Positions 2 through 45,537 of a DNA stretch of 64,000 nt are shown here, in pieces. The notes beneath the pieces are model-generated. The model did no database searches, was not told the DNA's origin, and worked only from the letters and a program-made list of their open reading frames with translations. The position numbers and the translations under genes are program-made. Position 1 is the stretch's first letter. Each line of letters opens with the position of its first letter. The stretch comes from Pseudomonadota bacterium (GTDB lineage: Bacteria > Pseudomonadota > Alphaproteobacteria > Rhizobiales > Tepidamorphaceae). The DNA is taken from positions 2,983 to 66,982 of the forward strand of contig JAEWYT010000121.1 of assembly GCA_023458595.1 (NCBI GenBank), given 5' to 3'.

Positions 2-1180
2 CTCGGAGGCGTCACGGCGGCGCTCGGCGTGCTCTACGCGCTGATGCAGAACGACATCAAGCGCCTGCTCGCCTACAGCACGGTGGAGAACATCGGCATC
101 GTCTTCATCGGTCTCGGCCTCTCGCTCGCCTTCCAGGCCAACGGGATGGGCTGGGCCGCGGCCCTCGCCCTGACGGCCGCCCTGTTCCACGTCTTCAACC
201 ACTCGCTGTTCAAGAGCCTCCTCTTCTTCGGTGCCGGCGCGGTGCTGACGGCGACGGGCGAGCGCGACATGGACCGTCTCGGCGGCCTCATCCACCGTAT
301 GCCCTATACGAGTTTCGCCTTCCTTGTCGGCTGCGTCGCGATATCGGCTTTGCCACCGCTCAACGGCTTCGTCTCGGAATGGCTGACGTTCCAGGCAATA
401 CTCCAGAGCCCGCAGCTGCCGCAGTGGGGCCTCAAGATTCTGGTGCCGGCGGTGGGCGCGCTGCTCGCCCTCGCCGCCGCGCTAGCCGCGGCATGCTTCG
501 TCAGGGCCTTCGGCACGACATTCCTGGGGCGGCCGCGCTCGACGCTGGCGGAGAAAGCCGTCGAGGTCGACGCCTATTCGCTCACCGCCATGTTCGCCCT
601 CGGAGGGCTCTGTCTTGCAGCCGGTGTCGTGCCGGGTTTTGTCATGGATGCGCTCGCCCCGGTCACGACCGCGCTGCTTGGTGACCGCGTGCCGGGCCAG
701 GTAGGCGTCCCCTGGCTCTCCATTGTCCCGATCACCGAGAGCCGCAGCTCCTACAACGGCGTGCTGGTCTTCCTCTTCATCGCGGTGTCCGCCTCGCTTG
801 CCGCCATGGCGATCCACCGCTTCGCTTCCCGCGCGACGCGACGCGCGCCCGCATGGGACTGCGGCTTCCCGGATCCGAGCCCGGCGACGCAGTACACCGC
901 AGGTAGCTTCGCCCAGCCGATCCGCCGCGTCTTCGGCACGCTCGTGTTCCAGGCCCGCGAGCATGTCGACATGCCGCCGCCCGGTGATCCGGGGCCCGCT
1001 CGCTTCCGCGTCGACCTGAGGGATCCGGTCTGGGATATCCTTTACGCCCCGGTCGAGATTGCCGTGAACGCGGCGTCGGGCCGCCTGAACCACCTGCAAT
1101 TCCTGACCATCCGCCGGTATCTCAGTCTCGTCTTCTTCTCCCTCGTCGTCCTGCTGCTGGCGCTCGCCCTATGGCCATGA
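2..1180 (+). CDS. NuoL/HyfB/HycC-type antiporter-like membrane subunit of a group-4 hydrogenase-like complex; C-terminal part, 5' end lies outside the window
   Basis: The frame is open to the window edge (LGGVTAALGVLYALMQNDIKRLLAYSTVENIG...). Family-typical motifs are AYSTVENIG and FHVFNHSLFKSLLFFGAG, and the protein is polytopic and hydrophobic. Its stop overlaps the next start (ATGGCCATGA). Confidence 0.85.
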   Translation, partial: LGGVTAALGVLYALMQNDIKRLLAYSTVENIGIVFIGLGLSLAFQANGMGWAAALALTAALFHVFNHSLFKSLLFFGAGAVLTATGERDMDRLGGLIHRMPYTSFAFLVGCVAISALPPLNGFVSEWLTFQAILQSPQLPQWGLKILVPAVGALLALAAALAAACFVRAFGTTFLGRPRSTLAEKAVEVDAYSLTAMFALGGLCLAAGVVPGFVMDALAPVTTALLGDRVPGQVGVPWLSIVPITESRSSYNGVLVFLFIAVSASLAAMAIHRFASRATRRAPAWDCGFPDPSPATQYTAGSFAQPIRRVFGTLVFQAREHVDMPPPGDPGPARFRVDLRDPVWDILYAPVEIAVNAASGRLNHLQFLTIRRYLSLVFFSLVVLLLALALWP

Positions 1181-2127
1181 TCGTCGACCTCCTGGTCCAG
1201 GGCGGGCAGATGGCCCTGGTGCTTCTGCTGGCGCCGCTGCTGACGGGCTTCGTGCGCAAGGTGAAGGCGCGGCTGCTGCGCCGGCGCGGCGCCTCCGTCT
1301 TCCAGCCCTACCGCGATCTCGCCCGGCTGCTGCGCAAGGACGTCGTGCTTGCCGAGAACGCCTCGTGGCTGTTTCGCGCGACGCCCTATCTGGTCTTCGC
1401 CGCGACCTGGGTTGCCGCTGCGCTGGTGCCGACCTTCGCACCGGGCCTCATGTTCAGCTGGAGCGCCGATCTGATTGCCCTGATCGCGCTGCTCGCGAGC
1501 GCGCGCTTCTTCCTCGCGCTCGCCGGCATGGACGTCGGCACGAGCTTCGGCGGCATCGGCTCGAGCCGCGAGGTGATGATCGCCTCGCTCGCCGAGCCGG
1601 CGATGTTGCTGATCGTCTTCACGCTGGCGCTGATCGCGGGCTCGACGCAGCTCTCCACGGTGGCCGCCTACATGGCGTCTCCCGATGTGGGGCTCAGGGT
1701 TTCGCTCGGTCTTGCGTTGATCGGCCTCATCATCGTCGCCGTCGCCGAGAACGCCCGCATTCCGGTCGACAACCCGGCGACGCATCTCGAACTCACCATG
1801 GTGCATGAGGCAATGGTGCTCGAATATTCCGGGCGGCACCTGGCGATGATCGAGTTCGCCGCGTTTCTGAAGCTCCTTCTCTACGTCTCGCTGATCGCCT
1901 GCATCTTCATGCCCTGGGGTCTCGCCGCGTCGGGGTCCGGGGCCGCGGGCTATGCGATCGCGATCGGCGCCTACGTCGCCAAGCTCGCCGTTGCAGGCTT
2001 CCTGCTCGCGGTGTTCGAGACGGCAATCGCCAAGATGCGCGTGTTCCGCGTGCCGGATTTCCTGGGTGCAGCCCTGATGCTCGGCTTCCTGGGCACCTTG
2101 CTCCTGTTCGTTTCGAAGAGTCTCTAG
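1171..2127 (+). CDS. NuoH/HycD/HyfC-type membrane subunit
   Basis: 318-aa polytopic ORF with a NuoH/HycD-like core (ENARIPVDNPATHLELTMVHEAMVLEYSG). Its start overlaps the upstream stop. Confidence 0.85.
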   Translation: MAMIVDLLVQGGQMALVLLLAPLLTGFVRKVKARLLRRRGASVFQPYRDLARLLRKDVVLAENASWLFRATPYLVFAATWVAAALVPTFAPGLMFSWSADLIALIALLASARFFLALAGMDVGTSFGGIGSSREVMIASLAEPAMLLIVFTLALIAGSTQLSTVAAYMASPDVGLRVSLGLALIGLIIVAVAENARIPVDNPATHLELTMVHEAMVLEYSGRHLAMIEFAAFLKLLLYVSLIACIFMPWGLAASGSGAAGYAIAIGAYVAKLAVAGFLLAVFETAIAKMRVFRVPDFLGAALMLGFLGTLLLFVSKSL

Positions 2128-2790
2128 ATGGGCAGCCTCACCTTCGATATCGCGCATCTTCTGGCCGGCGGTCTCGTGCTGGTGAGCTTCATGCTGCTCT
2201 ACCAGGACCGGCTCTACGCCCTCCTCAACACCTACGCGCTGCACGCCTTCGTCCTGGCGCTCTCGGTTGCCTGGCAGGCCTACGTCCAGGACGCCCCGCA
2301 CCTCTACGTGACGGCGGCGATCGCGCTCGTCTTCAAGGCGATCGTCATCCCGATGGCGCTGCATCGGATCATCCAGCGGCTCGGTATCCACCGCGAGATC
2401 GAAACGGTGGTCGGGATCGGCCCGACCATGATCGCCGGGATGGGGCTCGTCGCGCTGTCGATGGTGGTGATGCTGAGGGTGACGGCGGAGGCCGATCCTC
2501 TGGCTCGCGAGGACCTGGCCTTCGCGCTCTCCGTCGTGCTGCTCGGCCTTTTGATGATGGTGACCCGCCGCAATGCGGTCAGTCAGGTGGTCGGCTTCAT
2601 GTCGCTGGAGAACGGCCTGATCCTCGCCGCGACCGGGGCAAAGGGCATGCCGCTCGTCGTCGAGATCAGCGTCGCCTTCTCGGTCCTGATCGCCTTCATC
2701 GTCATTGGGATATTCCTGTTCCGCATCCGCGAGCGCTTCGACACGGTCGACATCCAGGCGCTCGACCGTTTCCGGGGAGAGCGGCGATGA
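2128..2790 (+). CDS. HyfE-like small membrane subunit (NuoK-related)
   Basis: 220-aa hydrophobic ORF that starts on the base after the upstream TAG. It carries GFMSLENGLILAA-type helices and sits between the NuoH-like and NuoN-like genes, as in hyf operons. Confidence 0.7.
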   Translation: MGSLTFDIAHLLAGGLVLVSFMLLYQDRLYALLNTYALHAFVLALSVAWQAYVQDAPHLYVTAAIALVFKAIVIPMALHRIIQRLGIHREIETVVGIGPTMIAGMGLVALSMVVMLRVTAEADPLAREDLAFALSVVLLGLLMMVTRRNAVSQVVGFMSLENGLILAATGAKGMPLVVEISVAFSVLIAFIVIGIFLFRIRERFDTVDIQALDRFRGERR

Positions 2791-4238
2791 CCTCGCTTCC
2801 CTTCGATTCGGTCGCCGCCGTCCTGGTGATCCCGCTGGCCGCCGCCGCGCTGGTCGCCGCGCTGCCGAACTACCGTGTCACCGCCCGCCTCAACGTGCTC
2901 GCTTCGTTCCTGACCTTTCTTGCCGCCGTGTCGCTGCTGTTCACCGACTGGGCGCCGGCGGGTGAATATCTGTTCATCGACGACCTCAACATCGTCTTCA
3001 TCGTGCTCAACACTTTCGTCGGCTTTACGACGAGCGTGTTCAGCGCGAGCTACATCGCCCACGAGATCGAGACGGGCCGGCTGACCCAGAACCATCTGCG
3101 CTTCTACCACGCGATGTACCAGGTGCTGATGTTCGGCATGAACCTGGCGCTGGTCGCCGACAACATCGGCCTGATGTGGGTTGCGATCGAGCTCGCCACC
3201 CTGACGACCGTGCTCATGGTCGGCATCTACCGTACCCACGAGGCGCTGGAGGCGGCGTGGAAGTACTTCATCCTCGGCAGTGTCGGCATCGCGCTCGCAC
3301 TGTTCGGCACGATCCTCGTCTACATGGCCGCCCGTCCAGTGGTCGGCGAGGGGATCGATGCGATGGTCTGGACCGTCCTGATCGCGCATGCGTCCAGGTT
3401 CGACGCGGCGCTGCTGAATGTCGCGTTCGCCTTCCTGCTCCTCGGCTACGGCACCAAGGTGGGCCTCGCGCCGCTGCACGCCTGGCTGCCCGACGCCCAT
3501 GCCGAGGGCCCGACACCGATCTCGGCGGTCCTGTCCGGCCTTTTGCTGAACGTTGCGCTCTACGCCGTGTTGCGCTTCAAGCTGCTGCTTGCGGCCAATC
3601 CCGCGGCGATCGCGCCGGGACCCCTGATGGTCACGATGGGCCTCACGTCGCTGATCTTCGCCGCTTTCATGCTCTATCGGCGCCGCGACATAAAGCGCAT
3701 GTTCGCCTATTCCTCGATCGAGCACATGGGAATCATCGCCTTCGCCTTCGGCATGGGCGGGCCGCTCGCCAACTTCGCCGGGCTCCTGCACATGACGATG
3801 CACAGCCTGACCAAGTCGGCGATCTTCTTCGCCGTCGGCCACATCGCGCAGGTCAAAGGAACGCAGAAGATCGCCGATATCCGCGGACTGACGGTCAGCC
3901 ACCCTTGGCTCGGCTGGTCGCTCGTCGTCGGCGTCGTCGCGATCGCCGGCCTGCCGCCGCTCGGCATCTTCATGAGCGAGTTCCTGGTCGTCAGCTCGAC
4001 CTTCGCCCGCGAGCCGTTGCTGGCCGTGCCGCTGGTCTTCGGCCTTTTGATCGCCTTCGGGGCGCTGCTCCTGCGGGTCAGCGGCATGGCGTTCGGCGAG
4101 CCTGCCGGCAGCACGGCGCCGGTGCAGGCGTCCTACGTTCCGATGTTCGCGCATCTCGGCCTCGTCCTTGCCGCCGGCATATATCTGCCGCCGCCGCTGG
4201 TCGCCTGGTTCCAGCAAGTCGCCGCCGCGCTCGGGTGA
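2787..4238 (+). CDS. NuoN/NuoM/HyfF-type antiporter-like membrane subunit
   Basis: 483 aa with motifs WLPDAHAEGPTPISAVLSGLLLN and AYSSIEHMG. ATGA overlap with the upstream gene. Confidence 0.85.
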   Translation: MTSLPFDSVAAVLVIPLAAAALVAALPNYRVTARLNVLASFLTFLAAVSLLFTDWAPAGEYLFIDDLNIVFIVLNTFVGFTTSVFSASYIAHEIETGRLTQNHLRFYHAMYQVLMFGMNLALVADNIGLMWVAIELATLTTVLMVGIYRTHEALEAAWKYFILGSVGIALALFGTILVYMAARPVVGEGIDAMVWTVLIAHASRFDAALLNVAFAFLLLGYGTKVGLAPLHAWLPDAHAEGPTPISAVLSGLLLNVALYAVLRFKLLLAANPAAIAPGPLMVTMGLTSLIFAAFMLYRRRDIKRMFAYSSIEHMGIIAFAFGMGGPLANFAGLLHMTMHSLTKSAIFFAVGHIAQVKGTQKIADIRGLTVSHPWLGWSLVVGVVAIAGLPPLGIFMSEFLVVSSTFAREPLLAVPLVFGLLIAFGALLLRVSGMAFGEPAGSTAPVQASYVPMFAHLGLVLAAGIYLPPPLVAWFQQVAAALG

Positions 4239-4249: not shown

Positions 4250-5749
4250 ATGACAACGCTTCAAGATCTGATCGGGAAGGGGGTGCGCGCACCGGACCAC
4301 CGGCCCTGGCTGCGCGCAAGCGTAGACATGGCGACATGGGGCGCTATCTCGGACCGTCTCGCTGCCGGCGAGGGGACCCTGCTCGGGCTTTGGGGCGAGG
4401 CGGACGCCGTTCATATGGCGCTGCTTGCCGGCGAGGACGGGGCAGTGGTCAGCCTCGGCTGTCCCGACGGGCATTTTCCTTCGGTAGCCGCCAAACATCC
4501 CCCGGCGATGCGTCTCGAACGCGCGATCCGCGACCTCTTCGGACTGACGCCCGACGGCCTGCCCGACGCGCGACCCTGGCTCGATCACGGCCGTTGGGGC
4601 GTGAAGGCCCCGCTCGGAGCGAATCCCGAAAACACCGACGGCGACACCGGCTACACGTTCCTCCCGGTCGAGGGCGAGAGCCTGCACCAGATCCCCGTCG
4701 GCCCCGTCCATGCGGGCATCATCGAGCCCGGCCACTTCCGCTTCACGGCCAACGGCGAGACCGTCGTGCGCCTGGAGCAGCGGCTCGGCTACGCGCACAA
4801 GGGTATCGAGGGCCTGATGGCCGGGGCAGATCTCGATCGCGCCGCCAGGCTCGCCGGACGCACGTCCGGGGACAGCGCCGTCGCCTACGGGGTAGCCTTC
4901 GCCCGCGCCGCCGAGGCCGCGCTCGACGTCGATGCTCCACCACGGGCGCAATGGATCCGCGCGCTGATGGCGGAGATGGAGCGGCTCGCCAATCATCTCG
5001 GCGATATCGGCGCGATCTGCAACGACGCCGCGTTCGCCCTGATGCTTGCGCACTGCGCTGTCCTGCGCGAGCGGGTCCTGCGCGTCGCCGGCACCTGCTT
5101 CGGGCATCGGCTGATGCGCGACCGGGTGGTGCCGGGCGGCGTTACCGTGGATCTCGACGCGAACGGCGTGGTCGCGGTTCGCGACCTCGTCGCCGAGATT
5201 CGCCGCCTCTTCCCGCCGCTGGTGCACCTCTACGACAACACCGCCTCGCTCCTCGACCGGACGGTCACGACCGGTATCCTGCGGGCCGACCTCGCCGGCC
5301 AATACGGCGCTGGCGGCTATGTCGGCCGCGCCTCCGGCCGTGGCTTCGACGCCCGGCGGCTCGGCTATCCGCCCTATGACCGGCTCGACTTCGACGTGCC
5401 CGTGTTGGCGGAGGGCGACGTCAATGCGCGCGTCTGGATCCGCATCCGGGAAGTGGAGCAGAGCCTCTCGCTGATCGAGCAGATCCTGGATCGGATGCCC
5501 GATGGCCCGATCCGCGCCGATCCTCCGCGCAGGGCAGGGGAGGGCGTGGCGCTCGTGGAGGGCTTTCGCGGCGACATCCTCGCCTGGCTGCGCCTCGGCG
5601 CGGAGGGAACGGTCATGCGCTGCCACCTGCGCGATCCGTCCTGGTTCCAGTGGCCGCTGCTCCAAGCCGTCATAGAGGGCAACATCGTCGCCGACTTCCC
5701 GATCTGCAACAAATCCTTCAACTGCTCCTATTCCGGGCACGACCTGTAG
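4250..5749 (+). CDS. Fused NuoC-NuoD / HycE-HyfG-type large subunit homologue lacking canonical [NiFe] cysteine ligands (Ehr-like)
   Basis: I take the ATG at 4250 (MTTLQDLIGKG) as the start, 12 nt after the upstream stop. The conserved core is PVGPVHAGIIEPGHFRF. The N-terminal ligand position reads RTSGDSAVAY (4859-4888) and the C-terminus reads ADFPICNKSFNCSYSGHDL-stop. Confidence 0.8.
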   Translation: MTTLQDLIGKGVRAPDHRPWLRASVDMATWGAISDRLAAGEGTLLGLWGEADAVHMALLAGEDGAVVSLGCPDGHFPSVAAKHPPAMRLERAIRDLFGLTPDGLPDARPWLDHGRWGVKAPLGANPENTDGDTGYTFLPVEGESLHQIPVGPVHAGIIEPGHFRFTANGETVVRLEQRLGYAHKGIEGLMAGADLDRAARLAGRTSGDSAVAYGVAFARAAEAALDVDAPPRAQWIRALMAEMERLANHLGDIGAICNDAAFALMLAHCAVLRERVLRVAGTCFGHRLMRDRVVPGGVTVDLDANGVVAVRDLVAEIRRLFPPLVHLYDNTASLLDRTVTTGILRADLAGQYGAGGYVGRASGRGFDARRLGYPPYDRLDFDVPVLAEGDVNARVWIRIREVEQSLSLIEQILDRMPDGPIRADPPRRAGEGVALVEGFRGDILAWLRLGAEGTVMRCHLRDPSWFQWPLLQAVIEGNIVADFPICNKSFNCSYSGHDL

Positions 5750-5757: not shown

Positions 5758-6282
5758 ATGCGCGATCTCCTGTTCCGGAACATCTTTCGCAGGCCCCTCA
5801 CCGAGCGTGCGCCGGAGGTCGAGGACGCGGCGATCGACGAACTCGCGGCGAGCGTCGGCCGCGCCGCGCGCAAGCGCCTCGGGCGCAGCCTCTCGATCCG
5901 CGAGGTCGACGCCGGCTCCTGCAACGGCTGCGAACTGGAAATCCACGCCCTCAACAACGCCTTCTACGATGTGGAGCGTTTCGGCATCCGCTTCGTCGCT
6001 TCGCCCCGCCACGCTGACGTACTGCTGGTGACCGGACCGGTGACGAAGAACATGCGCGAGGCGCTGGAGCGGACCTACAACGCCACGCCGGATCCGAAAT
6101 GGGTGGTCGCGGTCGGCGACTGCGCCTTCGACGGCGGCTGTTTTTCGACAAGCTATGCGGTCGTCGGAGGCGTCTCGCAGGTCGTTCCCGTCGATCTCCA
6201 CATCCGGGGCTGCCCACCGAACCCGACCCAGATACTTCGAGGTCTGCTCGCGCTCCTGGACTCGTCTTCGTCTGGTCGATAG
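5758..6282 (+). CDS. NuoB/HycG-type small subunit with a [4Fe-4S] cluster
   Basis: 174 aa. The cluster cysteines are retained (DAGSCNGCELE, VGDCAFDGG, GCPPNP). Starts 9 nt after the large-subunit stop. Confidence 0.85.
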   Translation: MRDLLFRNIFRRPLTERAPEVEDAAIDELAASVGRAARKRLGRSLSIREVDAGSCNGCELEIHALNNAFYDVERFGIRFVASPRHADVLLVTGPVTKNMREALERTYNATPDPKWVVAVGDCAFDGGCFSTSYAVVGGVSQVVPVDLHIRGCPPNPTQILRGLLALLDSSSSGR

Positions 6283-6367
6283 TCCGTATCGATCCCGAAA
6301 GTCGAAAGGCGCACCGCTACGTAGCCCCCTTGGGAGGCCGTGAATTGCGTTCTGACCAGGTGTCGCG

Positions 6368-6607
6368 TCAGTTCTTCAGGGTGTATTGAAACGGAAAGCG
6401 CGCGGCTCGAGCGCAGTCATGCGTGCAAATGCCCCGAAAAGCAATCACAATTTCGTTGTCTTTGACGTATGTCGTTGCGGCAAAGTTCGAGTCTGTTGCT
6501 GAAAAACCATCCGGATCGTCTTGGACAGCCCACCCTGCGGGATAAGGCGGCGTGTCGCTATAGGCATCCAGCGCCAATAGAGCGTATTCGAGATTACTTG
6601 TCGTCAT
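6368..6607 (-). pseudogene. Truncated N-terminal remnant of a class-3 (fungal-type) lipase family gene
   Basis: The 79-aa ORF begins like Lipase_3 proteins (LEYALLALDAYSD...GFSATDSNFAATTYVKDNEIVIAFRG). It stops making sense right after the IVIAFRG motif, near nt 6430, and it lacks the GxSxG nucleophile region. Confidence 0.5.
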
Positions 6608-6643
6608 TCGACCGTCACCTTCAGATCTATTTTATCAATAGTA

Positions 6644-7744
6644 TCATCTGCAGATCGCATCTTTACTATACAGATCGTCCCCTATCACTCTTATTACTTT
6701 TGAATACGGGTCAAAAAAGGCTACATTTGGCGGACGTAATTTCTTTCCGATAACGACAAGTGTAAAATCGGCAAAAGATGTCCCATGCTTTAAAGAATCT
6801 ATTTTATGAAATTCGTAGTACCCAATATTTAATTTGTTATATTTTTCTATAACCAGTTGATCTGCAGTAATATTTACAATAATATTTTGCAACGGGTATC
6901 TATATATATTTATTGTTTCTGGCCATTTTATTGTTTCTATACGATTTATACGCCTAAGGTACTCCAATTCTTCTTTTTCATACCACACCTCTTCATCAAC
7001 AACATACGTGAAATACCCAACCCAGGTAGCCGGACTTGGCTTGCAGACGACTTTATCGGGGGGCCTTCGCCCTTCCAGCCATGGCACCTCGCGGTCGGGA
7101 TTTTCAGGCCCAGTTGATGGAGCGTGCCGCAATCGCCTGTAGCGGATATTGTGAATTCGAAGGTCCGTATCCCGACGCGTGGCGTATTCGCGCCAGTAAG
7201 CCGCTATTAGCGACGGGTCTTCCGCATCGTCCAGACGCAAAACCTTCGGCGAGTCGGTAGGGCCTTGGAATTCCAGGTAATTCTGTAGATCGACAGTCCG
7301 GATATCGTAGGGGTCGGAAATGTCTTCCTTGACGGTGATTCTGGGCAATTCCGATAAACGTGGCTCGGAGCACAGAGCCGGCCCGACAATGATCAGACCG
7401 GCGCCCGAGGGAAGCCGTTTGGCCATGAGGCCGCCGGTTATCACGGTCGGCGTGTCGCCGGCGACGAGCCCTCCGAATCGCGCCTTGGCGCGGAGTGTGC
7501 ATTTGGCAATACTGCTGAGCTGATAACGCTGGCCTTCCGCTGTCACGTCGGCAAACACTTCGGTGTAGTAGACCGTGGGCCACAGATAGCTGAGCACCAT
7601 CGGAATGATTCCGGTGACGAGGAGAAAAAACAAAACGACCAGACCGGCGAGCGACAGCAGAACGATCCGAATGGCCCGCCCCCAGTTCGAGCCATCCTTT
7701 CTTGATTGGCTGTCGCCCTCAGATGCTTTGTTACCGACGCTCAC
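6644..7744 (-). CDS. Hypothetical membrane-anchored protein with no recognisable family
   Basis: 366-aa ORF, the only long ORF in the AT-rich island. It has one N-terminal TM helix (IRIVLLSLAGLVVLFFLLVTGIIPMVL) followed by a Tyr/Ile/Lys/Asn-rich C-terminal domain. GC falls strongly from the 5' end to the 3' end of the gene. Confidence 0.6.
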   Translation of the reverse strand: MSVGNKASEGDSQSRKDGSNWGRAIRIVLLSLAGLVVLFFLLVTGIIPMVLSYLWPTVYYTEVFADVTAEGQRYQLSSIAKCTLRAKARFGGLVAGDTPTVITGGLMAKRLPSGAGLIIVGPALCSEPRLSELPRITVKEDISDPYDIRTVDLQNYLEFQGPTDSPKVLRLDDAEDPSLIAAYWREYATRRDTDLRIHNIRYRRLRHAPSTGPENPDREVPWLEGRRPPDKVVCKPSPATWVGYFTYVVDEEVWYEKEELEYLRRINRIETIKWPETINIYRYPLQNIIVNITADQLVIEKYNKLNIGYYEFHKIDSLKHGTSFADFTLVVIGKKLRPPNVAFFDPYSKVIRVIGDDLYSKDAICR

Positions 7745-8281
7745 GCTGTATCCCTATCATGCTCCAGCGGCACTTCTGTTGACACGAGCGATCAAGCACT
7801 GCTTTGAGGCGTACCGACCCGCCGGCAAGATTTTCAGTGTGAGAATCGCTCTCGTCCACCGAGCCTCCCCCAACGCGAACCGCCATGCTCAAACGTAATC
7901 AAGGGAGCTTGCACCACGCGCGATGCGTGCACAACCATAAATTGCTAACAACGTGTAAGTTGCAGCTCGATGGGGTAAGCAGCCGATACGCTTCGGAATC
8001 ATCGGCCTAGCTTGCGATAGATGCGACGCAGGTCTCGGTCCGGGATCGGTACAGAATCGAGAGCCCTGTCCGCCAGCCGCGCCGACGCGTCGCCTTGGCT
8101 TGCGAAGAGACTGGCTGACGACGGAAGGGCGGGCTGCGCGTCGGGCATGGGTCTATGCAGAAAAATTGCGGACACACCCGTCTTCACTTTGACGGCGCTT
8201 CGAACTAGATAACTTGATCGAATTGATAGAGAATTGTCGTGCGCTGGTTCGGATGCCGACAATCCCGCTAAATCGGGTTAC

Positions 8282-8752
8282 ATGATTTCCCATAAGGCAA
8301 AATACGCGTTGCGGGCCCTTCTTGCGCTCGCCCGCGCCCCCCGCGACAAGCCGCTTCTGACGTCGGAGATCGCCGACAGCCAGTCGATACCCAAGAAGTT
8401 CCTCGAGCAGATCCTGCTTGAGCTCAAACACCAGGGCATCGTCATGAGCCGCCGCGGCAAGTTCGGCGGCTACCTGCTGCTGCGCAGGCCGGAGGAGATA
8501 ACCTTCGGCCAGGTGCTCCGGATCGTGGACGGCCCCATCGCGCCGCTGCCGTGCCTGTCCAAGATCGCATACCGGCGCTGCGACGACTGCAACAGCGAGG
8601 CCGATTGCGAGGTGCGCCACGTCTTCGCACGGGTCGCCGAAGCGACCCGGGAGGTGCTCGACAACACGACGCTGGCGGATGCCTTGCGCTCGGCGCCGGC
8701 GTTGCTGCAGCAGGACATGGGCGATGAGGTCGACGTCGCCGAAGCCGTCTGA
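8282..8752 (+). CDS. Rrf2 family transcriptional regulator
   Basis: MISHKAKYALRALLALA... is a typical Rrf2 wHTH N-terminus. A C-terminal Cys cluster is present (PLPCLSKIAYRRCDDCNSEADC). I prefer the ATG at 8282 over the upstream alternative start of the ORF track. Confidence 0.85.
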   Translation: MISHKAKYALRALLALARAPRDKPLLTSEIADSQSIPKKFLEQILLELKHQGIVMSRRGKFGGYLLLRRPEEITFGQVLRIVDGPIAPLPCLSKIAYRRCDDCNSEADCEVRHVFARVAEATREVLDNTTLADALRSAPALLQQDMGDEVDVAEAV

Positions 8753-8920
8753 CTCGAACTCCCGCGACCTAGGCTCTATCAATCCCGTCCGCGCTTTCGC
8801 CAAGTGGTGAGGGCTGCCGATCCTTTGCTGCTCCCACCTCCTCCGGATGCGTGGGGAACGGAATTCCACGCCGTTTCGACCCGGCAGAACAGACTTCTCC
8901 GATCGCTGCAAAATTCAAAA

Positions 8921-8949
8921 TTGACAATCTCGATCTATTAGGTCGAGAT
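8921..8949 (+). promoter_or_regulatory. Candidate promoter/operator upstream of the sulfate-binding protein gene
   Basis: AT-rich stretch with TTGACA (8921-8926), immediately followed by a 7-bp inverted repeat ATCTCGA-N9-TCGAGAT (8927-8949), about 35 nt upstream of the sbp ATG. I could not identify a clean -10 box. Confidence 0.3.
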
Positions 8950-8984
8950 AATGGGGTAACGGAGATCACAGAGGGGTATCCGCC

Positions 8985-10031
8985 ATGTCCACAGCCATGT
9001 TCGCCATATCCAGGCGATTGCGAAACAGTGCCGCGATCCTCGGTTTCACCGCAGCCTTCACGATGATCCTCACAATCGTGGCTTTCGCACAGACGACGCT
9101 GCTGAACGTCAGCTACGACCCGACACGAGAGCTGTACAAGGAATTCAACACGGCCTTCGCGAAGCACTGGAAGGAAAAGACGGGGGAGGAGATCGCCATC
9201 CAGATGTCGCACGGCGGTTCCGGCAAGCAGGCGAGAGCCGTGATCGATGGTCTGCCTGCCGACGTCGTGACGCTCGCGCTGGAGGCCGACATCAACGCCA
9301 TTGCAGACAACACCGGCAAGATCCCCGCCGATTGGCGCGGCAAGCTGCCGAACAACAGCGCGCCATATACCTCGACGATCGTCTTTCTTGTCCGCAAGGG
9401 CAATCCCAAGGGGCTGAAGGATTGGTCGGATCTCGTCGGTGACGGCGTCGAGGTCATCACGCCGAACCCCAAGACCTCGGGCGGCGCCCGATGGAACTTC
9501 CTCGCCGCCTGGGGGTGGGCGGAACAGGAATTCGGCGGCGATGAGGAGAAGGTCCGCGCCTATGTCGCGGATCTGTTCAAGCATGTCCCGGTGCTCGACA
9601 CGGGAGCCCGTGGTTCGACGACGACATTCGTTCAGCGCGGAATCGGCGACGTACTGCTCGCGTGGGAGAACGAGGCTTTCCTGGCGCTCGAAGAACTGGG
9701 GCCGGACCAGTTCGAGATCGTCGTCCCGTCCGTGTCGGTGAAGGCGGAGCCGCCGGTGTCGCTGGTCGACGGCAATGTCGACCGGAAGGGCACGCGCGAA
9801 GCGGCGCAAGCCTATCTCGAGTATCTCTATTCGCCGGTCGGACAGCAGATCGCGGCGAAGCACTACTACCGGCCGGCCGATCCGCAAGCCGTGACCAACA
9901 AGGCGGACCTCGAGCGGTTCCCCGAGTTGATGCTGGTGACGGTCGACGATTTCGGCGGGTGGAAGGAAGCCCAGCCGTATTTCTTCGGCGACGGCGGCGT
10001 CTTCGATCAGATCTACAAGCCGTCGAAGTGA
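8985..10031 (+). CDS. sbp: Sulfate/thiosulfate ABC transporter periplasmic binding protein
   Basis: 348 aa with a signal peptide ([10 protein letters not shown]). Sbp/CysP-like body ([46 protein letters not shown]). It lies upstream of cysTWA. Confidence 0.9.
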
Positions 10032-10053
10032 GACGGGGCCAGGGGCTTCGCAG

Positions 10054-10899
10054 ATGACCGGCGCGCACGTCGCGCTCAGGCGGCCGAGCGTCATCCCGGG
10101 CTTCGGGCTGGCTCTCGGTCTCACCCTGAGCTACCTCAGCCTTATCGTGCTCATACCGCTCGCCGCGCTCGGTCTCGAGGCCGCGAGCCTCGGCTGGGCG
10201 GAGTTCTGGCGCATCGCCTCCGACGAGCGAACCGTCGCGGCCCTGCGGCTCAGCTTCGGCGCCTCGCTCGTCGCGGCTCTGATCAATGCCCTGTTCGGCC
10301 TGGTCGTCGCATGGGTACTCGTGCGGTATCGCTTCCCGGGCCGCCGCATCCTCGATGCCTTCGTCGACCTGCCTTTCGCCTTGCCGACCGCGGTAGCCGG
10401 GATCGCGCTGACGGCTCTCTACGCACCCAACGGCTGGATAGGGCAGCTTCTGACGCCGCTCGGGCTGAAAGTCGCCTACACCCCGCTCGGCATCGTCGTT
10501 GCCCTGACGTTCATCGGCTTGCCTTTCGTCGTGCGCACCCTGCAGCCGGTTCTCGAGGAGATCGATCCCGAGATCGAGGAAGCTGCCGCGACCCTCGGAG
10601 CCTGGCGTCGGCAGACGGTCCTCAGGGTGGTGCTTCCGACCGTGTCGCCCGCGCTGCTCACCGGATTCGCGCTGGCGCTCGCCAGGGCGATCGGCGAATA
10701 CGGCTCGGTCATCTTCATCGCCGGCAACATTCCCTACGTGTCGGAGATCGCGCCTCTCCTCATCGTCATCCGTCTCGAGGAGTTCGACTACGCGGGCGCC
10801 ACCGCTGTCGGCGCCGTGATGCTGATAATCTCGTTCGCCCTTCTCCTCGCGATCAACCTGATTCAGGCGTGGGCACGCAGGAGGCTCGGCCATGGCTGA
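10054..10899 (+). CDS. cysT: Sulfate ABC transporter permease CysT
   Basis: 281-aa polytopic permease with an EAA-type loop ([21 protein letters not shown]). First permease after sbp. Confidence 0.9.
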
Positions 10900-11758
10900 T
10901 CGGGCTGTTCCCGCCGTGTCGGGATCCGCGATCACCGAGCCCCCGGTGGCGCGTGCGGCGCTCACGGTGGTCGCGGTGGTCTTCCTGAGTCTGTTTCTCC
11001 TTCTGCCGCTCGTCGCCGTGTTCGTCGAAGCACTGCGCAGCGGCATCGGGGCGTACGCGGCGGCGATCGTGGAGCCGGATGCGCTAGCGGCGATCCGGCT
11101 AACGCTGCTCGTCGCCGCGATCGCTGTCCCGGCGAACCTCGCCTTCGGAATCGCCGCAGCGTGGTCCGTGGCGAAGTTCGAATTCAGGGGCAAGAGCCTG
11201 CTGATCACGCTGATCGATCTGCCGTTCTCGGTCTCGCCGGTGATTTCCGGTCTCGTGTACGTGCTTCTGTTCGGTGCCCAGGGCCTGCTCGGACCGTGGC
11301 TGGAAGCACACGGCATTCAAATCATCTTCGCTGTGCCGGGCATCGTGCTGGCGACGGTGTTCGTGACCTTGCCATTCATCGCCCGCGAGCTGATTCCGTT
11401 GATGCAGGATCAGGGCACGCAGGACGAGGAAGCGGCTCTTTCTCTCGGTGCGAGCGGTTTCAAGACCTTCCTGTTCGTAACGCTGCCGAACGTGAGATGG
11501 GCGCTTCTTTATGGCGTTCTGCTCTGCAACGCGCGCGCCATGGGCGAGTTCGGCGCGGTTTCCGTCGTCTCCGGCCACATCCGCGGCCTGACCAACACAA
11601 TGCCGCTGCACGTCGAGATTCTCTACAACGAGTACAGTTTCGCGGCGGCCTTCGCGGTCGCCTCGCTTCTGGCCCTGCTCGCCCTGCTCACTCTGATGCT
11701 CAAGACGCTCCTGGAGCTGCGGTATGGCGGCGATCTTTCCGGTAACGGCCGACACTGA
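10892..11758 (+). CDS. cysW: Sulfate ABC transporter permease CysW
   Basis: 288-aa permease ([31 protein letters not shown]). It overlaps the cysT stop by 8 nt. Confidence 0.9.
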
Positions 11759-11861
11759 AGGGGGATCCATGGACGTTTCGGTGCCGTATGATAGGAGGGA
11801 CGGCAGCGCTGCCGCCGGCGATACGGCTTTCGTTCCGATCGACCGATCCTGGGGTGAGCCC

Positions 11862-12908
11862 ATGGACGTAACCGTAGACAATGTCGTCAAGGCGTTCGGC
11901 GAAACGCCCGCGCTGCACGGCGTCTCCCTCGATATCGCCGGCGGCGAGCTGATCGCGCTGCTCGGGCCCTCCGGGTCCGGCAAGACGACGCTGTTGCGCA
12001 TTCTGGCCGGGCTCGAGTCCCCGACGTCCGGGCGCGTGCTCTTCGGCGACGAGGATGCTTCGACCAAGACCGTCCAGGAGCGCAACGTCGGTTTCGTCTT
12101 CCAGCACTACGCCTTGTTCAGGCACATGACCGTTTTCCAAAATATCGCCTTCGGCCTGAAGGTGCGCCCGCGCGGGCGGCGCCCGCAGGGTGCGGCGATC
12201 CGCGAGCGGGTGCTGACGCTGCTTGACCTCGTCCAGCTGTCGGGTCTTGAGAACCGCTATCCGGCGCAGCTCTCGGGCGGGCAGCGGCAGCGGGTGGCGC
12301 TCGCCCGTGCGCTTGCCATAGAACCGCGTATCCTCCTCCTGGACGAACCGTTCGGCGCGCTCGACGCCAAGGTTCGCAAGGAGCTGAGGCGTTGGCTCAG
12401 GGAACTTCACGACCGCACGGGGCACACGACGGTCTTCGTGACCCACGACCAGGAAGAGGCACTCGAGCTCGCCGACCGCGTCGTCGTCATGAGCCAGGGG
12501 CGTGTCGAGCAGGTTGGTAGCGCCGACGACATCTACGATCGGCCGGCCACGCCCTTCGTATTCGACTTCATCGGGGATTCCAGCACGCTTCCCGTGACGG
12601 TCGAAACCGGCAAGGTTCAACTCGACGACCGGCATCTCGATATCGACCCGGGCGTGCGGAAGGACGGCGTGTATACGCTCGCCTTCCGACCCCAGCATGT
12701 CCAGATCGTCACCGACGGAGCCGGCACGATCCCCGGGATCGTCACCGCTACCCGCCGTCACTGGGGAGGTCGCCGCATCGAGATCGAGGTCGGCCTTGCG
12801 CGGCACCGGGTCGAACTCGACGTCCCTGCGGACACCCCGATTCCCGGGAACGGCCGACTGGCGATCAGGCCGACACGGTGGACGCTGTTCGAGAGGCGGA
12901 CCGCGTGA
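11862..12908 (+). CDS. cysA: Sulfate ABC transporter ATP-binding protein CysA
   Basis: Walker [10 protein letters not shown], signature [15 protein letters not shown], Walker B ILLLDEPF and a C-terminal TOBE-like domain. I chose the start at [13 protein letters not shown]. An alternative ATG at 11769, with a GAAGGGGGA RBS, would add 31 aa. Confidence 0.88.
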
Positions 12909-12992
12909 TCATATCGTCATTGACGTCGCTGCGACCGGCGGGAGTACGTCCGCCGGACGCACGCGCCGGCGGGGCGTCCGTCAACCGGTGAG

Positions 12993-13802
12993 ATGCGGAT
13001 GGACCTCCAACTGTCGATCATTATCGGCCTGACCTTCGTCATTCACCTGATTGGCACGCTTGCCTACGCCTTCCGTATTGCCGGGGTGCGGACCGGCAAG
13101 ATCGCGACGGCGCTGTCGCTCTTCAATATCCTCGTCCTGGTATCGCGGACGTCGAATTCCTTTCAGGGACCGTTCATCGCCAAGCGCGTCGAGATGGACA
13201 TACTCGGAGCCGCGACCTACGGCCTGGCCCGTGATTTCGGCTTGATCTTGCTCGCGGCGTCGGTCGCCACGGTCGCAGGATCGCTCATGATCCCGACGGT
13301 GCAGCGAATCGCGTCCCGGGCCGTGAACCGTTTCGGTCGCGACCGCTCCGTGCTGCGCCTCGTTCGCGCGGCATTGACGGCGCGCGGACTACGCTCGGCC
13401 GCGCAGTGCGGTGCCCTCCCGCGTCGGGGCTCGCTCACGAGCCTGCGCATCGGCCGGGACTTGCCGACCCGGGTAGTGCTGCTGAACGTCGGCGCCAACG
13501 CACTGTGGACGGTCGGCGTCCTGGCGGCGCTCTATGCGGGCTCGCTCGATCCGCAGTTCCGGGTGACGGCATCGACCTTGTCGTCGGTGATCAACGGCAT
13601 TGCTACGATCGTCCTGTTCGTGATCGTCGACCCCTATCTGGGCGGGCTTACGGACGATGTCGTCAACGGCAAGGAGACGGATGCCCGCTTCCGACGGGTC
13701 GTGGTGTGGATGGTCGGCAGCAGGCTCGCCGGCACGGTCCTCGCTCAGTTCCTCCTTCTGCCGAGCGCATATCTCATTGTTGAAGTGGCGCACTTGATCT
13801 GA
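12993..13802 (+). CDS. Amj/DUF2837-like integral membrane protein (candidate alternate lipid II flippase family)
   Basis: 269-aa polytopic ORF. The N-terminus IHLIGTLAYAFRIAGVRTGKIATALSLFNILVLVSRTSN resembles the Amj family as I recall it. The family call comes from memory only. Confidence 0.55.
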   Translation: MRMDLQLSIIIGLTFVIHLIGTLAYAFRIAGVRTGKIATALSLFNILVLVSRTSNSFQGPFIAKRVEMDILGAATYGLARDFGLILLAASVATVAGSLMIPTVQRIASRAVNRFGRDRSVLRLVRAALTARGLRSAAQCGALPRRGSLTSLRIGRDLPTRVVLLNVGANALWTVGVLAALYAGSLDPQFRVTASTLSSVINGIATIVLFVIVDPYLGGLTDDVVNGKETDARFRRVVVWMVGSRLAGTVLAQFLLLPSAYLIVEVAHLI

Positions 13803-14159
13803 AGTGCGAACGGGCCCCTGGTCTGCGTCGGAACGGCGGAATCCGTCGACGAAGCCCTGGTGGTTTGCCTCCGCGCCACGTTCAAGCGTGAAGATGCCTT
13901 CATGATGATGCCCCGAGGGCTCGACGAGATTCGGCGCATGGGCACAGGCTTGAATCACTTGGCTCTTCGAGCCGAAACTGGCTTCACGCCGATAGACGTC
14001 GGTCCCGGCGACGTCGATGAGACGAGAGGACGGAATCTATGCGATCGTATCGGTCGGATGGCCGGCGTCGCCGATCCGGAGGTCGGGTCGCGCGACTCGG
14101 CGACGCCGGATGACGCCCTAAGTGGAGTTCAGATTCCGACGGTTACGGTCAACAAATAG

Positions 14160-15401
<1,242 letters not shown>

Positions 15402-15404
15402 GCC

Positions 15405-16418
15405 ATGCCGCGCATGACCATGATCGAGGCGATCCGCTCGGCGATCGACGTGTCGATGGAAGCCGACCGGAAGGTTGTCGTTTTCGGTGAGGACGTCGGC
15501 TATTTCGGCGGCGTCTTCCGCTGCACCGCCGGTCTTCAGCAGAAATACGGCAGGACGCGTTGTTTCGACACGCCGATCAGCGAACTCGGCATCGTCGGCA
15601 CCGCGATCGGCATGGCGGCCTACGGCCTGAGGCCCTGCATCGAGATCCAGTTCGCCGATTACGTCTATCCCGCCTACGACCAGATCGTCTCGGAGGCGGC
15701 GCGACTGCGCTACAGGTCCAACGGCCAGTTCACCTGTCCGATCGTCGTGCGGATGCCGGCGGGCGGCGGCATCTTCGGCGGTCAGACCCACAGCCAGAGC
15801 CCGGAAGCGCTGTTCACCCACGTCTGCGGTCTGAAGGTGGTCGTCCCGTCCAACCCGCGAGACGCCAAGGGCCTGCTGATATCTGCCATCGAGGACCCCG
15901 ACCCGGTGATCTTCCTGGAGCCGAAGCGGCTCTACAACGGCCCCTTCGACGGCCATCACGAGCGCCCGGTGACGCCGTGGTCGAAGCATCCGCTCGGCGA
16001 GGTCGACGCCGGGCGTTTCGTCGTTCCGCTCGGCAAGGCCGAGGTCCGGCGCGAGGGTGGCGCCGTCACCATCCTGACCTACGGCACGATGGTCTACGTG
16101 GCGGAGGCGGCGGCGCAGGAGACCGGGATCGACGCGGAGATCATCGATCTGAGGACGCTGATGCCGCTCGACCTCGATGCGATCGTCGCCTCGGTCGGCA
16201 AGACCGGGCGCTGCGTGATCGTGCACGAGGCGACGCTGACGTCCGGCTTCGGCGCCGAGCTCGCGGCTCTCGTCCAGGAACATTGCTTCTATCACCTCGA
16301 GGCGCCCGTCGCCCGCGTCACCGGTTGGGACACGCCGTATCCCCACGCCCAGGAATGGGACTATTTCCCCGGGCCGGGTCGCGTCGGTGAAGCGCTCGTG
16401 CGCGCGATGGAGGCCTGA
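15405..16418 (+). CDS. bkdA2: Branched-chain 2-oxoacid dehydrogenase E1 beta subunit
   Basis: 337-aa transketolase-like pyrimidine-binding and C-terminal domains (VFGEDVGYFGGVFRCT, FDTPISELGIVG). Starts 3 nt after the E1 alpha stop. Confidence 0.9.
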   Translation: MPRMTMIEAIRSAIDVSMEADRKVVVFGEDVGYFGGVFRCTAGLQQKYGRTRCFDTPISELGIVGTAIGMAAYGLRPCIEIQFADYVYPAYDQIVSEAARLRYRSNGQFTCPIVVRMPAGGGIFGGQTHSQSPEALFTHVCGLKVVVPSNPRDAKGLLISAIEDPDPVIFLEPKRLYNGPFDGHHERPVTPWSKHPLGEVDAGRFVVPLGKAEVRREGGAVTILTYGTMVYVAEAAAQETGIDAEIIDLRTLMPLDLDAIVASVGKTGRCVIVHEATLTSGFGAELAALVQEHCFYHLEAPVARVTGWDTPYPHAQEWDYFPGPGRVGEALVRAMEA

Positions 16419-17696: not shown

Positions 17697-17705
17697 GAGA
17701 CGACG

Positions 17706-20026: not shown

Positions 20027-20647
20027 ATGAACGCGCCCGGGCGAGAACGGCCGGAATCGCTCGCCGATCCCGCGGTCGAGACAGGGGCCGCCCGTGCCGG
20101 CAGCCTCGCGACGTATTTCATCGGGAGCGGGATCGACCCGCTGACCGGCGCGCGCCTGTCCCGGGCCGAGCGTTTCTCGAACGCCGTGATGTCGACGCTG
20201 CTCCTCGTTGCGGCCGGCTTCTTCGTCGCGGGCGCGGCCGTCACCATCGCCGACGTTCTGGCGAGGGCGCTGTTTTCCTCCAATGTCGATTCGGCGATCG
20301 AGCTGACCACGCTGTTCGTCGGCCTCGGCGCCCTCCTCAGCATGCCGACCTGCTTTGCCGGGCTGGAGCACGTCACCGCGAAGATGATCAGCGAGTTCCT
20401 GTCGGGCCGCAGCGGCGCTGTCCTGACGGTGTTCGGAGCCCTGCTTTCGATCGCTTTCGTGGTGCTCCTCTTCGTTTTTTCGGTCCAGAGCGCATGGGAG
20501 AAAGCCGGCAGCCTCCAGGCCACTCCCGACATCGGGCTGAGGGTTTCGACGCTCTGGATCGTCGTCGCGGCGGCGCTCGGCCTTGCGGTTCTGGCGGCGT
20601 TCCGCGGATTGCTTGCCGCGCTCGGGCGGGGCAAACCGAATGGATAG
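20027..20647 (+). CDS. TRAP transporter small permease (DctQ family)
   Basis: 206 aa with four predicted TM helices. It lies immediately upstream of a DctM-type gene and overlaps it. The N-terminal ~50 aa are hydrophilic, so the start is uncertain. Confidence 0.7.
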   Translation: MNAPGRERPESLADPAVETGAARAGSLATYFIGSGIDPLTGARLSRAERFSNAVMSTLLLVAAGFFVAGAAVTIADVLARALFSSNVDSAIELTTLFVGLGALLSMPTCFAGLEHVTAKMISEFLSGRSGAVLTVFGALLSIAFVVLLFVFSVQSAWEKAGSLQATPDIGLRVSTLWIVVAAALGLAVLAAFRGLLAALGRGKPNG

Positions 20648-21944: not shown

Positions 21945-21976
21945 CCAACGCCCGCGGGCAACAACAGGAGGAAGCA

Positions 21977-23011: not shown

Positions 23012-23024
23012 CCAGGGACGAGAA

Positions 23025-23073: not shown

Positions 23074-23168
23074 ATCGGACACCCCCGCATCGGCTCTTCC
23101 CGAACCGGCCGGGCGCGGTAGTGTTTATCGAACGATGGCAAGTCAGCCATGAAACCCGGGAGGCGGTG

Positions 23169-45527: not shown

Positions 45528-45537
45528 GAGAGTAGAC

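Follow-up and report, generated by a model that had tools for sequence, protein, structure and literature searches.

What does a membrane complex of the hydrogenase type do when its large subunit carries none of the cysteines that would hold the nickel-iron centre? This question is raised by a 64,000-nucleotide (nt) stretch of DNA from an uncultured alphaproteobacterium of the Tepidamorphaceae (assembly GCA_023458595.1, contig JAEWYT010000121.1, positions 2,983 to 66,982 of the forward strand), which is called the window in the following and to which the coordinates refer. Its gene hyqG encodes a large subunit related to those of group-4 [NiFe] hydrogenases and of complex I, and the gene cluster to which it belongs is, judged from gene content and order, almost certainly the hyqRBCEFGI operon as found in Azorhizobium caulinodans, i.e., a member of the Hyq/energy-converting hydrogenase-related (Ehr) family. 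The loss of the [NiFe] cysteines in Hyq/Ehr is already known and was published in 2012-2013, and the feature as such is not new. The motifs that replace the ligands are under strong conservation, and with chances a little better than even the Hyq complex would be a reversible, ion-translocating redox module of a non-[NiFe] type and no conventional hydrogenase. The features of HyqG that carry the argument are the following:

4250..5749, plus strand: hyqG, ATG to TAG, 499 amino acids (aa), fused NuoC plus NuoD/HycE-like large subunit without [NiFe] cysteine ligands
4694..4744, plus strand (residues 149-165): beta1-beta2 loop of the hydrogenase type, PVGPVHAGIIEPGHFRF, including the conserved Glu159, aligned to PIGPLHVTSDEPGHFRL of HycE
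4859..4888, plus strand (residues 204-213): former first ligand motif (L1), R204-T-S206-G207-D208-S209-A-V-A-Y213, aligned to HycE, MbhL and NDUFS2/Nad7
5018..5020, plus strand: Cys257 (in GAICND), in a column that aligns with a cysteine of HycE (LACHF)
5690..5746, plus strand: C-terminus ADFPICNKSFNCSYSGHDL with Cys486 and Cys492, the former columns of the second ligand motif (L2) being Ser493 and Gly496

As judged from profile and database searches, HyqG is a member of the group-4 large-subunit/NuoD superfamily. The Pfam model Complex1_49kDa matches with E = 1.2e-41 and Complex1_30kDa gives a weak match above threshold at residues 72-122 (26.1 bits versus a cut-off of 22.5), whereas NiFeSe_Hases stays under its cut-off (22.9 versus 25.8 bits). 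The NCBIfam models for NuoD score far under their cut-offs (NF004739: 206 versus 360 bits; TIGR01962: 160 versus 459 bits) and the same holds for the FpoD model. A phmmer comparison with all PDB sequences resulted in HycE of the Escherichia coli formate hydrogenlyase as top match (7z0s_E, E = 5.6e-54), followed by MbhL (E = 8e-38) and by NuoD/NDUFS2 of complex I (E about 1e-30). An AlphaFold2 model of the HyqG monomer computed from a 40-sequence alignment (mean predicted local distance difference test, pLDDT, 73.9; predicted template-modelling score, pTM, 0.81) resembles HycE with a template-modelling score of 0.80 and the fused NuoCD proteins of Aquifex and E. coli with a score of 0.76. The model was used for this fold match alone, and its low-confidence segments are the parts expected to contact HyqI and HyqC.

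Group-4 large subunits bind the metal by an L1 motif R-x-C-G-x-C-x-x-x-H and an L2 motif D-P-C-x-x-C-x-x-R/H, and HyqG departs from the first by Ser206, Ser209 and Tyr213 and from the second by Ser493 and Gly496, with Cys492 at position -1. In the phmmer alignment to HycE, which is ungapped through both motifs, RTSGDSAVAY stands opposite RVCGICGFAH, placing serine on both cysteines and Tyr213 on the histidine, and NKSFNCSYSG stands opposite IGSLDPCYSC, placing Cys492 on the proline one column ahead of the third ligand; NCSYSGHDL of HyqG aligns to DPCYSCTDR and also to LCYSCTDR. The [NiFe] ligand columns are occupied in HyqG by Ser206, Ser209, Ser493 and Gly496, and a MAFFT alignment with nine distant relatives that have all four cysteines (CGxC and CYSC) led to the identical assignment. 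The complete list of HyqG cysteines comprises positions 71, 257, 269, 283, 458, 486 and 492. Because all four ligand columns are without cysteine, HyqG cannot bind a canonical Ni-Fe(CN)2CO centre.

Most of this had been read from the bare sequence in a first-pass annotation of the window, which assigned the protein to the group-4 type with a NuoC-like N-terminus. The family holds by the Pfam matches and the similarity to HycE, and the N-terminus by the Complex1_30kDa match together with the fold matches to HycE and NuoCD. Its coordinates for RTSGDSAVAY, with the exchange of Cys/Cys/His for Ser/Ser/Tyr, and for a C-terminal stretch without CxxC are exact, and the C-terminal cysteines that it had aligned by eye to shifted positions indeed lie off the ligand columns, with Cys492 one column before the third ligand. 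As a check it had proposed an alignment to group-4 large subunits and NuoD, and the alignments to HycE, to MbhL and by MAFFT place no cysteine in any of the four columns. The spacing given for the C-terminal pair, CX6C, was wrong; Cys486 and Cys492 form a C-x5-C pair. Finally, the missing C-terminal extension is real, with HyqG ending 3 residues past the last ligand column, but it is not a diagnostic sign, because the nearest four-cysteine relatives in the MAFFT alignment likewise terminate at ...CYSCxDR.

The replacement is not a peculiarity of this one protein. A homologue search over 5.8 billion proteins at E <= 1e-10 gave at least 8000 candidates, and the best 120, which were examined, are 70-77% identical to the query. 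Within these 120 the motif RxSGDSxVAY in place of L1 and the C-terminal motif FP[LI]CNKSFNCSYSGHDL are near-invariant, and 102 of the 120 end exactly in VADFPLCNKSFNCSYSGHDL. The residues invariant in a 40-sequence alignment include R204, S206, D208, Y213, C257, C486, N487-N491, C492, S493-G496 and D498, and the loop PVGPVHAGIIEPGHFRF is invariant in the 40 homologues as well. For more distant relatives, 1.84 billion cluster representatives were scanned exhaustively with HMMER, which resulted in 1184 proteins at E <= 1e-30, and 95 near-full-length representatives among the top 150 were compared. Just nine of these 95, with 34-37% identity to HyqG, have all four cysteines, and in the majority of the remainder S-G-D-[S/T/N/E] and S-Y-[S/A]-G replace the cysteine motifs. 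Asp208 goes together with the cysteine loss in this set, and the loop is retained in most of it. Only the closer, Hyq-type relatives have the pair Cys486 and Cys492; outside this clade these positions are mostly Ile/Val and Leu. On this pattern the ligand loss is regarded as an old and selected state that is common to a large family. A decaying pseudogene was considered and rejected, since the motifs are near-invariant in the 120 homologues and the open reading frame (ORF) is intact in about 80 genomes.

The large subunit is accompanied by a full set of membrane and iron-sulfur partners. The complete operon was read from the same contig, retrieved as sequence L001, in which the window begins at position 2997, inside the operon. 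The cluster encodes a 102-aa HTH_31/XRE regulator (hyqR, located just upstream of the window), a 668-aa HyfB-like subunit, NuoH-, HyfE- and HyfF-like subunits, the 499-aa large subunit and a 174-aa NuoB-like subunit:

29..1180, plus strand: hyqB, C-terminal 383 codons, HyfB/HycC/NuoL-like antiporter-type membrane subunit (full-length 668 aa, L001 2170..4176)
1171..2127, plus strand: hyqC, NuoH/HycD-like membrane subunit (Pfam NADHdh, E = 1.5e-36)
2128..2790, plus strand: hyqE, small HyfE-like membrane subunit (NCBIfam NF008556 'hydrogenase 4 membrane subunit', E = 9e-26, under cut-off; syntenic in related loci)
2787..4238, plus strand: hyqF, HyfF/NuoM-like antiporter-type membrane subunit (NCBIfam NF005043 'hydrogenase 4 subunit F', 896 bits versus a cut-off of 533)
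5758..6282, plus strand: hyqI, NuoB/HycG-like small subunit, 174 aa (Pfam Oxidored_q6, E = 8e-36; NCBIfam NuoB subfamily, 139.5 bits, above cut-off)

The part of HyqB inside the window matches NCBIfam NF005086 'hydrogenase 4 subunit B' with 514 bits; its closest PDB relative is HycC (7z0s_C, E = 2e-62), and the motifs with Glu of transmembrane segment (TM) 5, TM7 Lys, TM8 Lys and TM12 Glu are retained. HyqF is closest to MbsH, MbhH and NuoM and retains TM5 Glu, TM7 Lys and TM12 Glu in the alignment. HyqC, for which HycD is the closest PDB relative (7z0s_D, E = 3e-42) and in which the conserved acidic residues are aligned and kept, would connect the peripheral module to the membrane arm. All Hyq membrane subunits compared are closest to their Hyc, Mbh or Mbs counterparts, and subunits A and D of the Mrp antiporter are also among the closest relatives of HyqB and HyqF. 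In HyqI, Cys55, Cys58, Cys122 and Cys152 fall on the residues that ligate the [4Fe-4S] cluster in HycG and MbhJ. The group-4 partner set, i.e., a NuoB-like subunit with the proximal [4Fe-4S] cluster and NuoH- and NuoL-like membrane subunits, is present in the hyq cluster. A NuoI/HycF/EchF/MbhN/HycB-type subunit with two [4Fe-4S] clusters was searched for in two ways, giving no Fer4 Pfam hit in the cluster and no CxxCxxCxxxC in the six frames of L001 1..9400.

Synteny of the gene order, helix-turn-helix regulator plus B, C, E, F, G and I, extends over about 80 genomes, mostly alphaproteobacterial, and over essentially all loci that are long enough. An all-against-all clustering of the ORFs of 56 loci revealed no conserved partner gene beyond the seven hyq genes and shadow ORFs. 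Immediately after hyqI the window has an island of low guanine-cytosine content (0.53 versus about 0.67 elsewhere) at 6300..8000, with a 366-aa ORF at 6644..7744 and a 79-aa ORF on the minus strand; neither has a Pfam or NCBIfam match or is conserved beside hyq in related loci, and the island is probably a horizontally acquired insertion.

These data connect the locus to two bodies of literature. The hyqRBCEFGI operon was described in A. caulinodans (PMC2650096, PMC2930871, PMC3357923), and Sprecher et al. 2012 reported that HyqG is without both CxxC motifs and keeps three completely conserved cysteines, at positions 258, 491 and 497, next to Cys-55, Cys-58 and Cys-152 of HyqI; that HyqG has a Ni-Fe site was called 'uncertain, if not unlikely' by the authors (PMC3357923). 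The locus analysed here has the same seven-gene order including the regulator, and HyfA-, HyfD- and HyfH-type subunits are absent from both. Cys257, Cys486 and Cys492 of HyqG correspond to positions 258, 491 and 497 with the same C-x5-C spacing, both CxxC motifs being gone in each, and HyqI has Cys55, Cys58 and Cys152 at the A. caulinodans positions. Orthologues of hyq were named in Rhizobium leguminosarum/johnstonii 3841, Bradyrhizobium and Rhodopseudomonas (Ng 2009, Ciccolella 2010, Sprecher 2012), and for R. johnstonii 3841 (formerly R. leguminosarum bv. viciae; PMC2650096, PMC3357923) plasmid pRL11 carries the same seven genes in identical order with a large subunit 70.7% identical to HyqG. 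Because of this pRL11 cluster and the matching cysteine positions, the operon is considered orthologous to hyq of A. caulinodans.

The defining mark of Ehr complexes, on the other hand, is a group-4-like large subunit in which the Ni-Fe ligands are missing (PMC6349859, PMC10284858), and Degli Esposti 2015 listed ehr and hyq together as group-4 subtypes without canonical Ni-Fe ligands (PMC4758237); EhrL and EhrS of Geobacter are subunits of this kind (PMC7894505). The locus matches this definition because a superfamily member without the ligand cysteines lies beside intact NuoB-like and HyfB/C/E/F-like subunits. The first-pass annotation had suggested both an Ehr-type complex and an intact [4Fe-4S] site in the NuoB-like neighbour, which agrees with the gene set and with the four cysteines of HyqI. 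It had further stated that role and substrate of Ehr-type complexes are unknown. This mirrors papers from 2019-2023, in which the function is described as unknown (PMC6349859, PMC10284858, PMC10432482, PMC6728331), but passes over the hyq-dependent H2 uptake and evolution reported for A. caulinodans. Ehr is a broad and probably heterogeneous label, and within it the C-x5-C pair together with the hyqR regulator marks a narrower proteobacterial Hyq clade.

When the species of GTDB were scanned, each represented by one genome, a HyqG relative was identified in at least 592 of them, compared to eight diazotrophic genera listed in 2012. The hosts among the matches listed are mostly Alphaproteobacteria, largely aerobic soil bacteria, with a few beta- and gammaproteobacteria; they include Rhizobium, Mesorhizobium, Bradyrhizobium, Ensifer, Phyllobacterium, Sphingopyxis, Devosia and Rhodopseudomonas. 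Moreover, the cluster is found on 68 PLSDB plasmids (Rhizobium 31, Azospirillum 8, Burkholderia 7, Cupriavidus 6, others). With at least 592 species-level genomes, thousands of metagenomic proteins and many copies on rhizobial plasmids, Hyq/Ehr is very common. Its occurrence in so many species, including non-diazotrophs, speaks against nitrogenase-linked H2 recycling as the general role of the family. The plasmid copies are annotated as 'NADH-quinone oxidoreductase subunit C' or 'HypE', and databases also use 'hydrogenase 4'; once assigned to Hyq, the locus will not be mistaken for a hydrogenase or for complex I when metabolism is reconstructed.

How could such a complex work? The four conserved [4Fe-4S] cysteines suggest that HyqI is redox-competent, and the charged TM residues, present in HyqB and mostly in HyqF, together with the acidic residues kept in HyqC suggest that the membrane arm is competent for pumping. 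In the reversible redox module that we slightly favour, a low-potential soluble carrier or enzyme such as ferredoxin, flavodoxin or a soluble dehydrogenase would dock at the site that is normally filled by NuoI and would exchange electrons with the single [4Fe-4S] cluster of HyqI. The cluster would pass the electrons to an acceptor in the remodelled pocket at the interface of HyqG, HyqI and HyqC, and most plausibly this acceptor would be a membrane quinone in these aerobic or microaerobic hosts. The redox step would be coupled to the movement of H+ or Na+ via HyqB and HyqF, and the reaction could be reversed, driven by the membrane potential.

Several findings weigh against this proposal. The tyrosine of RLDY (Nqo4 Tyr87), a quinone ligand in complex I, lies in a column (DRLDYVS in Nad7/NDUFS2) that is Gly207 in HyqG, and the beta1-beta2 loop PVHAGIIEPGHFRF is of the hydrogenase type as in HycE, without the histidine of the complex-I-type loop. 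In the HyqG model pLDDT falls below 50 at residues 110-184 (the beta1-beta2 region) and 472-499 (the C-terminal motif), i.e., in what would be the lining of the former Ni-Fe pocket. In HyqF an asparagine near residue 255 occupies the column of the central TM8 lysine (Lys265 of NuoM, also Lys in MbhH and MbsH), whereas HyqB keeps the lysine. The route of electron entry without a NuoI-like subunit is conjecture. Furthermore, genetic data from A. caulinodans point towards H2: nodule H2 recycling is lost solely in Delta-hup Delta-hyq double mutants (PMC2930871), and hyq is needed for about 80% of the high H2 output under microaerobic conditions, an output that a nifK mutant retains (PMC3357923). 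Such a hyq-dependent, nifK-independent output fits a hydrogenase better than a ferredoxin:quinone module. Another way to account for these data would be that a soluble hydrogenase encoded elsewhere is linked to the membrane by Hyq.

For the readings that involve H2 or CO, the remaining hydrogenase- and carbon monoxide dehydrogenase (CODH)-related genes of the window have to be taken into account. A complete [NiFe]-hydrogenase maturation set, hypABCDEF, lies 38 kb downstream of hyq at 44281..50506 on the plus strand, each gene being above its NCBIfam equivalog cut-off:

about 44281..44622, plus strand: hypA
about 44622..45527, plus strand: hypB
45538..45786, plus strand: hypC
about 45783..46934, plus strand: hypD
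about 46985..47980, plus strand: hypE
48176..50506, plus strand: hypF

Among the main ORFs of the window, which were compared with Pfam and NCBIfam (not every ORF was screened), no [NiFe] structural genes were found, and the only hydrogenase-like genes are those of the ligand-less hyq cluster. The hyp genes are flanked by two molybdoenzyme clusters of the xanthine-dehydrogenase/aerobic-CODH family. The first, at 40151..43853 on the plus strand directly upstream of hypA, encodes a flavin adenine dinucleotide (FAD) subunit and a MoCoBD large subunit; the second, cox-like cluster begins with two SRPBCC/CoxG-like ORFs (62893..63798), followed by CoxM-, CoxS-, split CoxL-, CoxD- and CoxE-like genes, and continues just past the right end of the window (L083 2181..9767). 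Together, the hyp genes and these clusters look like an island of the carboxydotrophy/hydrogenotrophy type. Because none of 81 related loci has a hyp gene closer than 10 kb to hyq, the co-location of the two here is read as coincidental.

Of the other explanations, the one that survives best, unlikely as it is, takes Hyq as a membrane coupling module for a separate soluble enzyme, i.e., a soluble or sensory-type [NiFe] hydrogenase, a formate dehydrogenase or a CODH, which would dock on HyqI/HyqG instead of NuoI. The complex would then inherit the substrate of its partner, and the H2 phenotypes would be explained without a catalytic site in HyqG; the single Fe-S cluster and the lack of an electron wire in the hyq cluster are in line with this. 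As examples from other organisms, a pairing of Ehr with formate dehydrogenase was proposed (PMC6349859), the Ehr subunits of Geobacter are upregulated on formate (PMC7894505) and the Delta-hupSL mutants of A. caulinodans retain hupUV (PMC2650096). A Cox-like CODH and the hyp genes are even encoded on the same contig. However, they are tens of kilobases off, the hyp genes are unlinked to hyq in the related loci as described above, and no partner gene is conserved beside hyq in the 56 loci.

Quite unlikely is the view of the Ludwig laboratory that Hyq is a true H2-converting enzyme ('endo-hydrogenase' or H2:quinone oxidoreductase), which would require a non-canonical site built from Ser, Asp and Cys residues of HyqG, e.g., Cys257, Cys486, Cys492, Asp208 and Glu159. 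Next to the mutant data on nodule H2 recycling and microaerobic H2 output given above, it is supported by the slower diazotrophic growth of a Delta-hyq mutant of A. caulinodans (PMC2650096). HyqG also retains Arg204 and the hydrogenase-type loop with Glu159, its replacement motif is highly conserved and not degenerate, and the window combines a complete hypABCDEF set with the lack of [NiFe] structural genes among the main ORFs screened in its 64 kb. That Hyq oxidises or evolves H2 at a site without the four canonical cysteines, with the orphan hypABCDEF perhaps serving it, is in our view highly improbable, because hyp is unlinked in the 81 loci, the pair Cys486/Cys492 is specific to the Hyq clade and hence provides no family-wide catalytic site, and the family of at least 592 species extends far beyond H2-recycling diazotrophs. 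Moreover, no known hydrogenase chemistry works without the cysteines that are missing from the ligand columns, and the in vivo genetics come from one laboratory and one species, with the authors themselves doubting a Ni-Fe site. If it were true, Hyq would be a biological hydrogen catalyst of a kind not seen before, or would hold a metal centre in a novel manner.

Very unlikely, too, is a redox-inert Mrp-like cation/proton antiporter or stress module, in which HyqG and HyqI are structural or regulatory remnants. The loss of the catalytic ligands in HyqG, the Mrp subunits A and D among the relatives of HyqB and HyqF and the lack of a donor or acceptor module in the cluster would fit. Against this stand the conservation of all four [4Fe-4S] cysteines of HyqI and the fact that the pocket-lining motifs are among the most conserved parts of HyqG, which indicates a working site rather than a remnant. 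Furthermore, true Mrp systems are not known to contain homologues of NuoB, NuoD and NuoH. Finally, that HyqG is a bona fide group-4 [NiFe] hydrogenase whose ligand loss is an alignment artefact, as the two cysteines near the C-terminus and the weak, sub-threshold NiFeSe_Hases match might suggest, is vanishingly improbable, since three independent alignments (phmmer with HycE, phmmer with MbhL, MAFFT with nine four-cysteine relatives) show Ser/Ser/Ser/Gly in ungapped ligand columns, and a misalignment concealing the ligands was rejected as there is no cysteine within 40 residues of the L1 motif.

The region upstream of hyqR was inspected for regulatory sites. A consensus scan, which gives a weak negative only, covered the 350 nt preceding hyqR in L001 and revealed neither the sigma-54 element TGGYAY-N5-TTGCW (one mismatch allowed) nor the NifA element TGT-N10-ACA, and by the same scan just one of 64 related loci has a sigma-54-like site. 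This differs from A. caulinodans, for which the operon is reported to be NifA-dependent: neither the locus analysed here nor 63 of the 64 relatives have a NifA/sigma-54 site upstream of hyqR. A search for an FNR/FixK box upstream of hyqR gave no hit either. An imperfect palindrome, GATGGTTAGAACATC (consensus GATGTTT-N-AAACATC), is located at L001 1756..1770, 96 nt before the start of hyqR. With up to 3 mismatches it occurs in 36 of 65 related loci, amounting to 37 sites, where random windows drawn from these loci would be expected to give about 1.9, and its positions cluster at about -95, -75 and -12. This palindrome is probably the operator of the XRE-type regulator HyqR.

The rest of the window is of a different character. 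Ordinary housekeeping or catabolic genes occupy 8234..19100 and 20027..27493; they include an Rrf2 regulator, a sulfate/thiosulfate-type ATP-binding cassette (ABC) transporter, an Amj-family protein, a tripartite ATP-independent periplasmic (TRAP) transporter (DctQM), a branched-chain 2-oxoacid dehydrogenase operon (E1alpha, E1beta, E2, E3) and a set for aromatic catabolism with a BphC-like dioxygenase, an FAD monooxygenase, an FAA hydrolase and an IclR regulator. Two long ORFs combine unrelated domains: at 30017..32200 on the minus strand (727 aa) a branched-chain amino-acid permease domain is joined to a strictosidine-synthase/SGL-like beta-propeller, and at 56289..58496 on the plus strand (735 aa) an ABC ATPase is joined to UPF0261 N- and C-terminal domains, with a phosphoenolpyruvate (PEP)-hydrolase-like gene after it. 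Both may be true fusions or neighbouring genes merged by the mechanical ORF call.

Hyq/Ehr is the least understood branch of the superfamily of complex I and membrane-bound hydrogenases and has been discussed as an intermediate in the evolution that connects hydrogenases and complex I. Its scientific value lies in the substrate question, which is posed here by a minimal, six-subunit, complex-I-like pump with a single cluster. The contribution of the window is limited: the conserved replacement motif is confirmed, and so is the absence of a linked partner gene, but the substrate question becomes no more testable by it.

In comparison with known systems, the Hyq/Ehr complex of six subunits (HyqB, C, E, F, G and I) is a reduced form related to both formate hydrogenlyase-2 (Hyf) and complex I. 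With Ehr it shares the ligand-less group-4-like large subunit, the NuoB-like small subunit and the NuoH- and Mrp/antiporter-like membrane subunits; unlike in Ehr at large, where most distant S-G-D-S relatives end in NLSY[SA]GNDL, HyqG carries the second C-terminal cysteine. With HycE/HyfG of E. coli (group 4a, PDB 7Z0S) it has in common the fused NuoC-NuoD architecture, the EPGHFR loop, the L1 arginine and a cysteine at the Cys257 column, and HyqB, HyqC and HyqI are homologous to HycC, HycD and HycG, respectively. HycE, however, has RVCGICGFAH, DPCYSC and a processed C-terminal extension, and Hyq is without HycF, HycB and a formate dehydrogenase. Similar to NuoD/NuoCD of complex I (Nqo4, NDUFS2), HyqG presents a [NiFe]-less fold on a NuoB [4Fe-4S] subunit, with serine at the second L1 cysteine column; unlike complex I, the hyq operon has six structural genes only and is without NuoA, J, K, I, E, F and G. 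Finally, the Mbs/Mbx complex of Pyrococcus furiosus (PDB 6U8Y) is a precedent for a group-4-derived respiratory complex that was repurposed to another acceptor and makes no H2; it is said, after work by Yu et al. from 2020, to reduce polysulfide. MbsL and MbsH are among the PDB matches of the Hyq subunits, the similarity of Mbs to HyqG being low (E = 9e-28), and unlike Hyq, Mbs retains a NuoI-type subunit and many more membrane subunits.

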